Source: Deltaproteobacteria bacterium (lineage in GTDB: Bacteria; Myxococcota; Kuafuiibacteriia; Kuafuiibacteriales; Kuafuiibacteriaceae). From it: 64,000 bases of DNA. The stretch spans positions 6,382,270 to 6,446,269 of the forward strand of contig JADJBV010000001.1 of assembly GCA_016703535.1 (NCBI GenBank). The letters run 5' to 3'. This document shows, piece by piece, positions 4,391 through 9,303 of the stretch. The translations under genes were made by a program, and so were the position numbers. The notes beneath the pieces were generated by a model. It was not told the DNA's origin. It worked only from the letters and a program-made list of their open reading frames with translations, and did no database searches. Every line of letters begins with the position of its first letter. Position 1 is the first letter of the stretch.

Positions 4391-4906
4391 CTATTCGGCG
4401 GCGGGCTTGAGTGGCTCGGCGATCACTCGGTTGTCGGCGAGCTGAGCGCGGATCTGGGTGTGGAGTGACTCGGGCGTACAAGCGTCGACCGCCGGGCGCA
4501 CGTCCACCACCTTCTTCCACTGGTTGCCATCGTACTGACGGAAGATCCCGACGATCGCTACGAAGGCCAGCTCCGGAGAGCCGACCACGGTCTCGATCTT
4601 TTCTTCCGCCGGAAACACGGTGAAGGTCACCGTCTTGATCAAGGTCGGGCCCAGGGCTTCGGTGCCGCTGCGCCACAAGGTGTTGAAGTCGAGCTCGTCG
4701 AACTTGTCGGTGGACTTGAGCAAATAAGCCCGCACCTCGACCGGCAAAGACTGGCCCTCGGGGCTGAGGTTCAGCACTTCACCCGCTTTGACGAAGAGCT
4801 CGAGGGGGATCTCTTTACACTTCTCCGGCCCGGGGAAGAGCGAACGATACAGGCTGCAGCCCGGCAACAAGGCCAAGATCAGGAGCCAAACACTACGCGA
4901 CATCAT
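4391..4906 (-). CDS. tssJ: Type VI secretion lipoprotein TssJ (SciN/VasD-like)
   Basis: 171 aa. Lipoprotein signal 'VWLLILALLPGC'. Size and the 'LPVEVRAYLLKSTDKF' pattern fit TssJ. Its ATG overlaps the stop of the upstream FHA gene (ATGA at 4903-4906). Confidence 0.75.
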   Translation of the reverse strand: MMSRSVWLLILALLPGCSLYRSLFPGPEKCKEIPLELFVKAGEVLNLSPEGQSLPVEVRAYLLKSTDKFDELDFNTLWRSGTEALGPTLIKTVTFTVFPAEEKIETVVGSPELAFVAIVGIFRQYDGNQWKKVVDVRPAVDACTPESLHTQIRAQLADNRVIAEPLKPAAE

Positions 4907-7119
4907 GGTACCCGGAACACCAGTCGGACCGAGCCGACCCGAACCTCTTGCCCGTCGCGCAAGGTGGCGAGGCCCACCGGCTTACCGCCGAACTCGAGCC
5001 CGGCCTCGGCGCCCAGGTCGGCGATCTGACAGACCTGGCCATCCAGACGCGCCGCGGCGTGGATCCCGCCGACGCCCGGGCCCCGGACCATCACTTCGGC
5101 CCGAGGGTGAGCGCCGATCGAGCTGGTGACGCCGTTTTCCAGCGGCACGTGGGCGCCATCGTCAGGGCCACCGACCACCACCAGGTACGGTTGTCGCCCG
5201 GGGGAGTCCATGCGGAAGCGGGTCGCGATCTTCACCAAAAGTTCGGTGTCGCCCACGTGGATCCGTTCGTCATCCTTCAACACCCGCCGCCGCTCTTGGC
5301 CGTCGTCGCCGCGGGTGACCATCACCCACCGGCCCAGGCCGTCGAGATCAAAACGGGCCGACGAAGGACGGCTGGTGGCCGAACCGACGCGGAAGTCACC
5401 GCCATCGCCCACGACATAACCGGGCCGCAAGACCAAGGTGGTCCGTGGTCCGTCGTGGAGCGGCAACAACCAAGCGGCCACGTCCACCGACTCGACTTCG
5501 CTGGCGCTGAGGACCTGGGTCTTCTTCGACAGAGGGTCGACGGTGGACTGCTCCGAGCTCGGCGCCGAAAGAGGTGCGCCGCCCAAGTTGGGCAAGGCCA
5601 CCGGCGGCAACGAAGGCTTGGCGCTCAAGCTGCCCATGGTGCTGATCACGGGCTCGGGGGCTTTGGCGTCCCCTTTGGCGATCCGCAAAAACTGGGTTGG
5701 CGATGGCAAGGCCAGCTCGTTGTTGGCGTCGGGCGAACGAGGGCCCGGTGGCGGTCGGGTCTCGGCTTCACTCTCTTCCAGGGAGGGCTGCTCGAGGTGA
5801 GCGGGAGGCATCGACAAGGTCGGGATGATCTCGTCGTCGTCTTTGACTACCGGCTTGGGCGCGGGGGCTTTGACCTCGACCTTGGCGGCGGCTTTGGGGT
5901 CGGGCTTGGCGGCGTTGGGAGCCGGTTTTTTGGGGACCCCCCGCACCTCCACCTTGCCCTCGGCTCGCCCCTCCGCGGCTCGGGACGGGGTGATCTGCAT
6001 GCCCTTGATCATGCCCGTGTGCTCGAGGGAAGCGGGGGCCGCGCTTTTCATGTCTTGCAAGACAGCTTGCGCGCTGGCGACCTGACGGCGCCGGGCTTGG
6101 GTCATCAGCACCACGCCGCCCGCGAGGAACAAGAGGCCACCGGCGATGGCCAACACCAAACCCCAGTGAGCAAAGCCCGGCGGCTCCACCAAGGGCAGAT
6201 CGATCTGGACCGCGTCGGTGGCCAGATCGGCGCCGGCCTCGATCTGAAAATCGGTCACCTTGCCGGTGAAGAGTTGGGGCAGGTCGTACTCCAACACCCG
6301 CTGGTGCCGCAGCTCGTCGGCCAAGGCCACCAGGGCCGCCTTCATGTCGGGCACGTTGGTGCTGGGCCGCATGGTGCCGCCGCTGCGTTTGCTGAGTTCG
6401 GTCAAGGTGCGCAGCGGGGTGTCGTCGATGGGCGCGTAACCGACCGCGTGGATCCGGATGCCTCGGCTGGCCGCGTCGCCGCCCAACTTGGTGAAGGCCC
6501 CAAACTTGAGCTCGGCGGCCAGGCCATCGGAGACCACCACCAAAACCCGGCGTTCTGGCAAGTTGGCTTGCGAAAGTTGAGCGAGGCCGTCCCGGACCCC
6601 GTCGGGGAGCTCCAGCTCGATCGCATCTTCTTTGATCTGGAGCGCCTGCAGGGCGTCGCGGGCCGCCTTGACCGAGGTCGGCTTGAGTTCGCTGATCACG
6701 CCGTCGGCGTAGGCGATCAGGCCCACTTGGGAGCTGGGAGGCACCAGATCCAAGAGCTGCAGGAGCCCCGCCTTCAATTCGGCGAAGGCCGATCCAAAGA
6801 TCGGCGAACACTGGATCACCATGGTCAACGCCATGGGCTCCCCCAACTTGCCGAAGGTCTCGACCTGGGCGGCGTTGGGCAGGCGTTGGCCGTTGACCAA
6901 CAACTGATAGGGACGGGGAGTGGCCGGCGGGATCACCAAGCCGTTTTCATCGAGGTCGCTGAGGTAGATCCGAACCTTGGTCGGGGGTGAGGTCGCGATC
7001 CGCTCGATGCGCAGCGTGGGCTTTTGGGTCGAGGGACCGGCGGCCCCGACGGCGGGCCACAAGAGGCTCAACAAGAGGAGGCCGACCCCGAGGGTCGAGC
7101 GGCCGAGCGGGGCGCCCAT
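4903..7119 (-). CDS. Bitopic membrane protein: periplasmic vWA-like domain, TM, Pro/Ala/Lys-rich linker, two cytoplasmic FHA domains (T6SS Fha/TagH-like)
   Basis: The ORF track gives 4903..7338. I place the start at ATG 7119 ('MGAPLGRSTLGVGLLLLSLLWPAVGAAG', a signal/TM). The vWA-like core has a degenerate MIDAS ('ALTMVIQCSPIF', 'RVLVVVSDG', 'LTELSKRSGGTMR'). The TM is 'WGLVLAIAGGLLFLAGGVVLM'. The two FHA-like modules are 'LVLRPGYVVGDGGDFRVG...HVGDTELLV' and 'YLVVVGGPDDGAHVPLENGVTSSIGAH...VRVGSVRLVFR'. Confidence 0.75.
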   Translation of the reverse strand: MGAPLGRSTLGVGLLLLSLLWPAVGAAGPSTQKPTLRIERIATSPPTKVRIYLSDLDENGLVIPPATPRPYQLLVNGQRLPNAAQVETFGKLGEPMALTMVIQCSPIFGSAFAELKAGLLQLLDLVPPSSQVGLIAYADGVISELKPTSVKAARDALQALQIKEDAIELELPDGVRDGLAQLSQANLPERRVLVVVSDGLAAELKFGAFTKLGGDAASRGIRIHAVGYAPIDDTPLRTLTELSKRSGGTMRPSTNVPDMKAALVALADELRHQRVLEYDLPQLFTGKVTDFQIEAGADLATDAVQIDLPLVEPPGFAHWGLVLAIAGGLLFLAGGVVLMTQARRRQVASAQAVLQDMKSAAPASLEHTGMIKGMQITPSRAAEGRAEGKVEVRGVPKKPAPNAAKPDPKAAAKVEVKAPAPKPVVKDDDEIIPTLSMPPAHLEQPSLEESEAETRPPPGPRSPDANNELALPSPTQFLRIAKGDAKAPEPVISTMGSLSAKPSLPPVALPNLGGAPLSAPSSEQSTVDPLSKKTQVLSASEVESVDVAAWLLPLHDGPRTTLVLRPGYVVGDGGDFRVGSATSRPSSARFDLDGLGRWVMVTRGDDGQERRRVLKDDERIHVGDTELLVKIATRFRMDSPGRQPYLVVVGGPDDGAHVPLENGVTSSIGAHPRAEVMVRGPGVGGIHAAARLDGQVCQIADLGAEAGLEFGGKPVGLATLRDGQEVRVGSVRLVFRVP

Positions 7120-8320: not shown

Positions 8321-9303
8321 TGCGCGCCGCCGTTTGGTTGCTTTTGGCTTGGCCTTCGGTCGCGGGGGCCGAACCCAGCCTACGTTTGTTGGCCGTGGAT
8401 CCGTCGGCCTGTGCGCGTGACGGCGTGGTGAAGGTGGAGCTGGAGGAGCTGGAGCTGGAGGGCGAGGTCCGAGACTTTCCCGCCAACACCTTCCGCTTGG
8501 TCCTCGACGAGTTGACCTTGGGGCAAGAGGCGGTGCACGCGCAGACCCTGGCCCAGTCGGAGGTGCCGCTGTCGATCGCGGTGGTGCTGCAGGCCGACCT
8601 TACTTATCGGCCTGACTTCGAGCGCCTGACCCAACTCACCCGTACTTTCTTGCGCGCCTTGCCCGCTCGAACTCAAGTGGGGGTGTGGACGTACGGCGAC
8701 GCGGTGATCGCCCGGGCCCAAGGCACCACGCCGGATCTGGCCGCCGACAGCATCGCCCAGATCTTTGCGGTGGATCGGGTGGGGAGTTCCGCGCTGCAAG
8801 CCTGGCAACAAGCCTTCACAGCCCTGCGAGCGGCGCCGGGCCGGCGCTTTTTGATCACGGTGGCCGACGGCAAAAACGAGGCCCCCGACCGAGCCGCGAT
8901 CCGCGCGTTCGGGGATCAGCTGGCCGCCGCCGGAATCTTGTTTCATCCCCTCGCCTACTCTCCCGCCGACGATCGGGAGCCGATGCTCCACCTGGGTGAG
9001 TTGGCCAAACGATCGGGCGGCACTTTTCGCTTAGGCACCAGCCTAAGTGATCTCGAGGCCCAGCTCGCCAACCTGAGCGCCCAGCTGGAGCGCCGCTGGA
9101 TCTTGAGTTTTTTGGTGCCGGATCGGTGTGCCCAGCCCCACCAACTCCAGGTTGGCCATGGCGCACTGCGCTCCGAGCCCCGGCCTTTGCCGGCGGTGGT
9201 GCCGCCGCCGCCGCCGGTGGGGATCTACGTGGGGGTCGGGGTGGGCGTGTTGGCGCTGGGAGCCGTGGGATTTTTGGTGCACCGGCGCAGGCGGATGGGG
9301 TGA
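8320..9303 (+). CDS. Secreted/membrane-anchored vWA-like protein, paralogous to the ectodomain of the 4903..7119 protein
   Basis: ATG 8320 overlaps the stop of the PP2C-FHA gene (TGATG). Signal peptide 'MRAAVWLLLAWPSVAGA'. The vWA-like core has a degenerate MIDAS ('LSIAVVLQADLTY', 'RFLITVADG', 'LGELAKRSGGTFR'). C-terminal TM 'IYVGVGVGVLALGAVGFLV' followed by HRRRR. Confidence 0.7.
   Translation: MRAAVWLLLAWPSVAGAEPSLRLLAVDPSACARDGVVKVELEELELEGEVRDFPANTFRLVLDELTLGQEAVHAQTLAQSEVPLSIAVVLQADLTYRPDFERLTQLTRTFLRALPARTQVGVWTYGDAVIARAQGTTPDLAADSIAQIFAVDRVGSSALQAWQQAFTALRAAPGRRFLITVADGKNEAPDRAAIRAFGDQLAAAGILFHPLAYSPADDREPMLHLGELAKRSGGTFRLGTSLSDLEAQLANLSAQLERRWILSFLVPDRCAQPHQLQVGHGALRSEPRPLPAVVPPPPPVGIYVGVGVGVLALGAVGFLVHRRRRMG

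Follow-up and report, generated by a model that had tools for sequence, protein, structure and literature searches.

A 64,000-nucleotide stretch of contig JADJBV010000001.1 from Deltaproteobacteria bacterium (hereafter, the window) carries three genes, here called A, B and C, next to the tssJKLM genes of a type VI secretion system (T6SS). The region was read, tentatively and at a little less than even confidence, as a lineage-specific accessory module of a myxobacterial (Polyangia-type) T6SS, in which A would be a membrane-tethered, Fha-like scaffold with a PpkA-like periplasmic input and phospho-independent FHA contacts, B would remove phosphate added by an unlinked kinase and C would act as a periplasmic partner or competitor. 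Treating A as a Fha-like accessory subunit of TssJLM was the most economical reading, because A combines the three parts of Fha with a vWA domain and transmembrane (TM) segment of the PpkA type and is invariably coupled to tssJ. The genes concerned are listed below by window position and strand.

1..2377 (-): tssM, cut by the window start; TIGR03348, 402 bits (NCBIfam)
2382..3038 (-): tssL; DotU, 148.4 bits (Pfam)
3040..4380 (-): tssK; T6SS_VasE, 363.5 bits (Pfam)
4391..4906 (-): tssJ (lipoprotein); T6SS-SciN, 82.6 bits (Pfam)
4903..7119 (-): gene A, 738 amino acids (aa) from MGAPLGRS, first gene of the tssJKLM(F) operon; GC content at third codon positions (GC3) 0.83
7256..8320 (+): gene B, PP2C with a C-terminal FHA, 354 aa, cytoplasmic
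8317..9303 (+): gene C, paralogue of the A ectodomain, 327 aa

The TGA stop codon of A shares bases with the ATG of tssJ (ATGA; CCATGATG), and A is translationally coupled to tssJ. A divergent gap of 136 bp separates A from B, and the start codon of C, read directly, sits within the stop codon of B (TGATG; GTCTGATGCGC). Window GC is high (about 66-69%) and GC3 marks the coding frames clearly; all open reading frames (ORFs) of the locus are intact, with GC3 = 0.79-0.87.

Homologues of A were found in ten further distinct loci on metagenome contigs or metagenome-assembled genomes labelled Polyangia, Myxococcales, Deltaproteobacteria or Proteobacteria bacterium, giving 11 T6SS loci with the window. 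The database names of these relatives are generic, e.g. "FHA/VWA domain-containing protein". A lies immediately upstream of tssJ in 11 of 11 loci; B is adjacent to A, divergent or co-linear, in nine of them, none being found near A in L017 and L019, and a C-type gene is present in seven. VgrG, PAAR, Hcp, TssE/F, TssBC or ClpV are encoded close by in several. Since the arrangement recurs in 11 independent T6SS loci, it was taken to be a genuine T6SS-associated module.

A canonical Fha (FHA plus T6SS_FHA_C) is encoded in five of the 11 loci (L007, L009, L011, L018 and the P0026 locus) and not in the window locus, and B immediately adjoins it in all five. TagF is a separate gene in four related loci and is absent from the window. 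Because canonical Fha stands beside the module in five loci, A was considered an extra accessory there, and it does not take the place of Fha in general. Contigs that share 97-99% identity with the window occur in metagenomes, and one of them (L001, 97%) extends 7.6 kb past the window start, with tssM at its full length of 1130 aa, then tssF (554 aa; TssF, 310.7 bits), then unrelated genes. Given this gene order, the T6SS locus is a split-off block of tssJKLM and tssF, and neither PpkA nor Fha is encoded immediately upstream. The original prediction had named a PpkA/Fha pair immediately upstream as a finding that would make A, B and C accessory paralogues; no such pair lies in these 7.6 kb, and a canonical Fha does stand beside the module in the five related loci.

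The protein encoded by A was divided as follows, on the basis of Pfam, profile comparison, composition, conservation and AlphaFold2 (AF2) models.

7039..7119 (-): residues 1-27, signal-peptide-like N-terminus (MGAPLGRSTLGVGLLLLSLLWPAVGAA), a hydrophobic segment read from the sequence; AF2 pLDDT <50
6166..7038 (-): residues 28-318, periplasmic beta-strand flanks and vWA fold (Pfam, profile against PDB, AF2/Foldseek)
6097..6165 (-): residues 319-341, TM helix followed by basic ARRRQ on the cytoplasmic side (Kyte-Doolittle peak 2.55; AF2 helix 319-359)
5533..6096 (-): residues 342-529, disordered cytoplasmic linker of ~185 residues rich in Pro, Ala, Ser, Lys and Glu (AF2, composition)
5686..5709 (-): residues 471-478, LPSPTQFL linker motif (S473, T475), candidate docking motif and phospho-site (conservation)
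5518..5520 (-): Thr534 (KKTQVL), candidate phospho-site in a flexible segment N-terminal of FHA1, present in 22 of 22 long forms
5194..5532 (-): residues 530-642, FHA1, an FHA fold without the GR, SxxH and NG motifs
4906..5193 (-): residues 643-738, FHA2, an FHA fold with every phosphothreonine (pThr)-contact residue replaced

An outside-in topology, that of a type I inner-membrane protein, was assigned because the signal-like N-terminus is combined with the hydrophobic helix 319-341 followed by ARRRQ. The ectodomain matched Pfam VWA at 25.9 bits (cut-off 23.8). A profile of the A family, compared with PDB, gave collagen VI vWA (E 1e-8) and integrin I-domains (about 1e-6 to 1e-7), and the AF2 model (pLDDT 75-89) was matched by Foldseek to the vWA domains of ITIH1, ArnB, BatB and CMG2/TEM8. 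On this profile and model evidence, the predicted fold is the Rossmann-like alpha/beta vWA fold (PF00092). The metal ion-dependent adhesion site (MIDAS) is non-canonical, with Q103-x-S105 in place of D-x-S-x-S and S197-D198-G199 retained. The full D-x-S-x-S...T...D set is absent; the first Asp is Gln in 23 of 24 long forms and Gln or Glu in most medium and short forms (defined below). Across the vWA family the first position is never Asp, the third is variable and S-D-G is kept. Judged from these alignments, the non-metal-type MIDAS is a conserved family trait and not decay.

The structural description given in the original prediction was borne out, with every feature lying at the coordinates it named and far exceeding chance. 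It had described A as a signal or TM segment, a vWA domain, a TM, a low-complexity linker and two FHA domains at the head of a tssJ-K-L-M operon, which was confirmed by sequence, Pfam, NCBIfam, phmmer, AF2 and Foldseek together with the ATGA overlap. The vWA fold held on both profile matching and structure prediction, and the degenerate MIDAS is real. The divergent PP2C with its C-terminal FHA, the TGATG coupling of B to C, the paralogy of A and C, and the strings quoted for these proteins (LTELSKRSGGTMR, LGELAKRSGGTFR, VIQCSPIF and VLQADLTY) were all found, as was the absence of a Hanks kinase from the 64 kb by regular-expression (regex) and Pfam scans. The same fusions were also recovered in related T6SS loci.

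To define the family, a hidden Markov model (HMM) of the ectodomain was searched against 1.84 billion representative proteins. This yielded 189 proteins at E <= 1e-30, all so far metagenomic. A set of 160 fetched relatives was sorted with home-built HMMs and included 24 long forms of 700-1040 aa (vWA-TM-linker-FHA1-FHA2), 75 medium forms with one FHA (vWA-TM-single FHA) and 43 short forms (vWA-TM only, the gene C type). Word-indexed protein searches with A and C had returned 12 and 6 matches, and the HMM shows the ectodomain family to be far larger. Among GTDB species-representative contigs, one degenerate peptide pattern from the A-family alignment retrieved one locus, L011. The breadth of this family, with its 75 medium and 43 short forms reaching far beyond the T6SS-linked subset, would suit a general envelope-signalling module that merely neighbours the T6SS and does not act on secretion. 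One medium form (L012) indeed lies beside Tol-Pal genes, is overlapped by the gene for a 643-aa Amidase_2 protein, a peptidoglycan amidase, and has no T6SS there. The tandem-FHA long form, however, adjoins tssJ with an overlapped start codon in each of the 11 loci examined, and it has diagnostic traits of its own (FHA1, loss of the pThr residues and the linker motif). A mere bystander role was therefore regarded as very improbable.

Amidase_2 proteins of ~630-640 aa were seen at L012:11398-13329, L007:3359-5284 and L018:2909-4798, with 43-56% identity over their full length, and none is encoded in the window. They occur thus in two module-bearing T6SS loci and directly downstream of a vWA-TM-FHA gene outside T6SS (L012). 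They have no obvious signal peptide, and a faint M23 match was obtained in L012 only. This suggests a recurring link of the vWA family with a peptidoglycan amidase. In L017, the gene table places VipA and VipB domains on one 602-aa product (L017:2877-4685), which would be a TssB-TssC fusion, and a 1062-aa WD40 protein is encoded between this product and the A homologue.

The FHA domains of the module have the 11-stranded beta-sandwich FHA fold (PF00498). FHA2 of A was matched by phmmer to the FHA of GarA (E = 2.6e-11) and by Foldseek at a TM-score of 0.86; its Pfam scores fall just below cut-off (Yop-YscD_cpl, 32.1 vs 33.2; FHA, 19.6 vs 20.7). Neither T6SS_FHA_C (Pfam) nor a VI_FHA/TIGR03354-type model (NCBIfam) matched A, B or C. 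The FHA2 of A and the FHA of B are each other's nearest FHA match (tblastn E about 1e-7 to 1e-8). In the HMMER alignment with GarA, FHA2 has GA for GR, GGIH for SRRH (SxxH) and GAEAG for GSLNG (GSxNG). Over 22 long-form representatives, the pThr ligands were kept in none (Arg), one (Ser) and one (Asn), with the structural Gly, His and Gly invariant. R679, H687, C697 and D701-L702 are also invariant in the family, and G680 and G703 are found in at least 80% of the 22. FHA1 has none of the GR, SxxH and NG motifs. Among medium forms, whose genes lie outside T6SS loci and which have a single FHA, Ser was kept in 33 of 41 and Asn in 29 of 41, and Lys stands at the Arg position in 24 of 41. The canonical Fha proteins of L007, L009 and L011 retain GR, SxxH and SN, so the loss of pThr ligands is specific to A and B.

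Gene B gave matches to PP2C_2 (E = 1.8e-20, 73.8 bits) and FHA (E = 2.1e-15, 57.3 bits) in Pfam and to the Stp1/IreP type (155.7 bits) in NCBIfam. Its two domains are as follows.

7286..7990 (+): residues about 11-245, PP2C catalytic domain with REDNED, DGTGG, GDSR, SDG and MDN intact (Pfam, motif check)
8027..8302 (+): residues about 258-349, FHA domain with GS for GR, AGRKH for SxxH and GSTNGT kept

All five PP2C motifs (RxxNED, DGxGG, GDSR, SDG, DN) are intact in six of six B homologues, which makes it probable that the system still involves Ser/Thr phosphorylation. The metal-binding acidic motifs of PPM/PP2C are thus present in B, and phosphatase activity is predicted. When the B FHA was aligned to GarA with hmmalign, Arg was absent from all six homologues (Ser or Ala instead), S-T-N-G-T was kept, and the Ser of SxxH was kept in five of six, the window copy being the exception.

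These residues bear on the signalling model of the original prediction, in which the tandem FHAs of A read pThr on T6SS components and B is brought to pThr sites by its own FHA. Several points speak for it: the FHA folds are confirmed, the PP2C motifs are intact, the B FHA keeps S-T-N-G-T and, in five of six, the SxxH Ser, R679 in the beta4-beta5 loop region might substitute for the missing Arg, and the linker motif matches a pT-x-x-hydrophobic pattern. The canonical ligands, however, are gone from FHA2 of A (Arg in none, Ser in one and Asn in one of the 22), from FHA1 and, for Arg, from all six B homologues; sister-locus Fha proteins keep GR, SxxH and SN, and no kinase is linked in the 11 loci. 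Having lost Arg, Ser and Asn in both FHA domains, A is not a canonical phospho-reader, and this part of the model fell. For the B FHA the result was divided, with Asn-Gly present, Arg missing throughout and Ser missing from the window copy, and recruitment of B to pThr by this domain became doubtful. The proposal that a periplasmic domain is wired to an FHA scaffold survived in the sense of a phospho-independent scaffold and not as phospho-reading. As a whole, the phospho-reading model was considered unlikely.

No kinase was detected near the module. The Hanks motif HxDLKxxN was absent, by six-frame regex, from the window and from 18 related locus records. No Pkinase match in Pfam, and no further T6SS gene, was found among about 40 larger window ORFs; two minus-strand ORFs (32671-33747 and 33723-35132), lying outside this Pfam scan, were covered by the kinase-motif regex only. 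Neither the 7.6 kb past the window start (L001) nor the gene tables of related loci contained a kinase, so that none is linked in 11 of 11 loci.

Candidate phosphorylation sites lie in the cytoplasmic part of A. Residues 355-546 were predicted to be disordered (AF2 pLDDT about 30), and linker identity among distant A relatives is only 17-30%. Within it, a motif [LI]-P-[SD]-P-[TED]-x-F-[LMFIV] occurs in one to three copies in 21 of 22 long forms. In the window subclade (P0001, P0003, P0005, P0008, P0009, P0034 and P0067) the motif has Thr, as SPT in six of seven and RPT in P0067; in the sister subclade it reads D-P-E, D-P-D or S-P-E. Such an exchange of SPT for DPE or DPD is, in these alignments, the pattern expected if a phospho-site and a constant negative charge were interchangeable. 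AF2 placed a short helix at 474-481, over the motif, and in the full-length model the motif was not docked confidently (pLDDT there about 45). The segment around Thr534 had low pLDDT in the FHA1 model and is probably flexible. Binding of canonical Fha to the phosphorylated linker motif was also considered and was not favoured; Fha co-occurs mainly with the acidic, non-phosphorylatable variants.

From the same motif, A could be drawn as a kinase-independent trans-envelope switch, in which the vWA domain together with C would sense an envelope or contact cue and would nucleate the membrane complex and baseplate through the linker and the phospho-blind FHAs; LPSPTxF would be a switch under the control of B, hard-wired to 'on' (DPE/DPD) in the sister clade. 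This reading was held possible at low probability. If it is true, the switch would be a third route of post-translational T6SS activation beside PpkA/Fha and TagF.

A may alternatively serve the membrane complex only as an additional structural subunit, without phospho-regulation, B (with or without C) acting on another target such as canonical Fha or TssL elsewhere. The phospho-blind FHAs of A fit this proposal, as do the two loci that carry A without B (L017, L019), the position of B next to canonical Fha in five loci and the acidic residues that replace Ser/Thr in the motif of clade II. Against it, B is adjacent to A in nine of 11 loci, four of which have no Fha nearby (the window, L014, L010 and L013), Thr534 is invariant and the window clade has SPT motifs. 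A purely structural A was held unlikely, at the same low probability as the trans-envelope switch.

In the product of gene C (GC3 0.80), a signal peptide precedes a vWA-like domain, and a C-terminal TM at residues 300-320 is followed by the tail HRRRRMG. In BLASTP, the A ectodomain and C are 29% identical over 201 residues (E = 6e-22), and the vWA domain of C was assigned provisionally from this paralogy and from TIGR03436 (29 bits, NCBIfam). The closest non-orthologous relatives of C are medium forms (vWA-TM-FHA) at about 40% identity. A cysteine pair, C31/C270, covaries across the ectodomain family, with both residues present in 34 proteins, both absent in 112 and one only in 14. This suggests a disulfide, which would join the N- and C-terminal beta-strands and would fit an oxidising periplasm. 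C diverges faster than its neighbours: it is 93% identical to its L001 counterpart, compared with 99% for A or B, and 61% identical to that of L014, compared with 82-84%.

Two further ideas about C were set aside. A sorting signal of the MYXO-CTERM type in its tail scored below cut-off (TIGR03901, 14.2 bits, cut-off 20; PGF-CTERM, 13.1, cut-off 24.5), and the last 45 residues contain no Cys. Derivation of C and the B FHA from a split vWA-TM-FHA gene seems improbable, since a simple fission would not account for a gene order of PP2C-FHA followed by vWA-TM, despite the ~40% identical vWA-TM-FHA relatives of C.

In the favoured reading, A would belong to the TssJLM membrane complex as a stoichiometric accessory subunit and would scaffold its assembly. 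A would share the parts of soluble Fha (membrane attachment, disordered region and FHA) but would be permanently tethered and would carry a periplasmic vWA in addition. Its FHA folds would make phospho-independent contacts, as in YscD/PrgH and EssC, with cytoplasmic parts of TssL, TssM or TssK or with the related FHA of B. A kinase encoded elsewhere would phosphorylate the A linker or another component and tune assembly, B would reverse this, and the likely sites in the window clade would be the LPSPTxF motif and/or Thr534. In the periplasm, C would pair with A, or compete with it, for an envelope ligand.

Several observations weigh against this reading. Canonical Fha coexists with A in five of the 11 loci, so that A is no simple Fha substitute, and L017 and L019 have A without B nearby. 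The invariant R679, eight residues before the invariant His, may leave room for a non-canonical phosphate site in FHA2. The SPT and DPE states follow the split between two subclades and may therefore represent a single evolutionary event. The motif Thr is not the sole substrate of B, because B also accompanies A proteins with the acidic motif (L009, L011, L018 and the P0026 locus). The window locus has no sheath, tube, spike or ClpV genes, so that the activity of this T6SS is putative. Finally, contig L002 (sample 3300056817), 98.75% identical to the window, has three separate 1-nt insertions, all in gene A and none elsewhere in 7.4 kb, at the equivalents of window 5286, 5650 and 6172, by which A is split into ORFs of 450, 122 and 126 aa (P0004). 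These may mean that A is dispensable or naturally inactivated in one population, or they may be assembly errors in GC-rich runs.

The T6SS block covers window 1..4906 plus L001:10662-15718, with no tssG after the terminal tssF. None of tssA/B/C/E, tssG, hcp, vgrG, clpV, Fha or TagF was found in the 64 kb or in the 7.6 kb past the window start (L001). With only tssJ, K, L, M and F present over this distance, and with the three frameshifting insertions of L002 in A, the locus could be a decaying orphan T6SS fragment with a non-functional module. Its ORFs are, however, intact with GC3 of 0.79-0.87, and dN/dS against the 97% and 80% identical relatives was 0.06 and 0.18 for A, 0.05 and 0.23 for B, 0.16 and 0.34 for C and 0.08 and 0.11 for tssK. 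By these estimates, A, B and C are under purifying selection similar to that on tssK, C being the fastest-evolving. The split layout is also kept in L014, the 80% identical relative, and split T6SS loci are common. Decay was thus held to be the least probable of the explanations considered, and a remote one.

Other features of the window were recorded as follows. Upstream of B, a consensus scan found one sigma-70-like promoter match where 0.0 were expected, which is weak evidence; the gene overlapping C and the regions beyond it follow in order.

7184..7211 (+): sigma-70-like promoter match TGGACA-16-TAGACT, upstream of gene B
9300..10562 (+): 420-aa product with an N-terminal TM; the GTG start overlaps the stop of gene C (GTGA); SGNH/GDSL-esterase matches weak only (16.9 and 16.7 bits)
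10567..12033 (+): next gene in the same direction, lipoprotein-like start LLLTAVNAGC, no Pfam or NCBIfam match
12580..16632 (-): secreted-type protein of 1350 aa that combines multiple Kelch repeats with a CHB_HEX_C domain
16864..18006: FGE-sulfatase-family gene
23144..26285 (-): two multihaem cytochromes c clustered with a cytochrome b561-type subunit
26668..28757 (-): HD plus AAA_33 (P-loop kinase-like) gene overlapping an RNA_ligase-family gene, resembling an RNA repair/healing cassette
30000..38000: GC drop from ~0.68 to 0.56-0.62 over DUF1848, DUF488, a SAM-methyltransferase-like gene and ORFs without annotation; may be an island gained by horizontal transfer

Because of the GTGA overlap, the gene at 9300..10562 was considered to be co-translated with B and C in the window lineage. 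It was placed outside the conserved module because it is present in L001 but L014 has a convergent 689-aa gene instead. Homology of L001 with the window stops at window 12034.

Known systems provide parts of the module in other combinations. Fha serves as a T6SS assembly scaffold through its FHA domain, a disordered region and a C-terminal amphipathic helix, and nucleates the membrane complex and baseplate (bioRxiv 10.1101/2023.12.21.572528), and membrane PpkA recruits Fha at the inner membrane (PMC12607579). PpkA (TagE) of the Pseudomonas aeruginosa H1-T6SS, Serratia, Agrobacterium and Acidovorax is, like A, a bitopic inner-membrane protein that has a vWA-type domain in the periplasm and its signalling part in the cytoplasm; its site of action is the membrane interface with Fha (PMC12607579, PMC10482370). 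The likeness is one of domain type. Unlike PpkA, A lacks a kinase domain and runs the other way through the membrane, with the vWA at the N-terminus after the signal peptide and the cytoplasmic part at the C-terminus; this cytoplasmic part consists of a disordered linker and two FHA folds. With Fha/TagH, A shares an FHA fold, a long disordered region, membrane attachment and encoding with tssJKLM. It differs in having no domain of the T6SS_FHA_C/TIGR03354 type, in its FHAs, which are C-terminal, tandem and without GR, SxxH or N, in having a TM instead of an amphipathic helix, and in its periplasmic domain.

PppA (TagG) resembles B as a PP2C encoded in a T6SS locus, and TagF-PppA of Agrobacterium tumefaciens is likewise fused to a T6SS regulatory domain (PMC5995506), although the fusion partner is TagF there and FHA in B. 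PP2C-FHA phosphatases are known from plant KAPP (KI-FHA plus PP2C) and from Deinococcus DRA0334, in an operon of vWA, serine/threonine protein kinase, FHA and PP2C. In those cases a kinase is alongside or a known partner and the FHA Arg is kept, whereas the present module has no linked kinase, an FHA without the Arg and vWA domains in the periplasm. The archaeal ArnA (FHA) and ArnB (vWA) show a functional FHA-vWA pairing, and ArnB (8s05) was among the best Foldseek matches, including the beta-strand flanks (PMC6509490). Both Arn proteins are, however, cytoplasmic and bind in a phosphorylation-dependent manner, while the vWA and FHA domains of A are on opposite sides of the membrane. YscD/PrgH/MxiG of type III secretion systems (T3SS) and EssC of type VII secretion systems (T7SS; tandem FHA) have, like A, an FHA fold without pThr ligands in an inner-membrane component, a likeness at the level of fold and residues only. 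They belong to other secretion systems and have another domain order.

The known cases of post-translational control over T6SS assembly come from a few Proteobacteria and involve PpkA/PppA/Fha, TagF, TagQRST, RtkS, TssW and TslA. The module re-uses the domain vocabulary of the PpkA-PppA-Fha pathway (vWA, FHA, disordered region, PP2C). It is not a member of that pathway as defined, because the window locus encodes no kinase and no Fha-type protein. In the literature searched, no description was found of a vWA-TM-linker-tandem-FHA protein heading tssJKLM.

A, B and C represent a real, conserved and undescribed T6SS accessory family, so far found only in uncultured lineages, whose proposed function is drawn from sequence and synteny, and a wider, unannotated vWA-TM-FHA protein family was defined around it. 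The module suggests variant control of T6SS assembly. A deep-branching, uncultured myxobacterial lineage appears to wire the same building blocks differently, with the vWA input and the FHA/disordered scaffold on one tssJ-coupled membrane protein and no dedicated kinase. If A nucleates assembly, it would offer a natural test of the model of Fha as a membrane-proximal scaffold, and it would add a third secretion system, next to T3SS and T7SS, to those in which FHA domains have become structural and phospho-independent.

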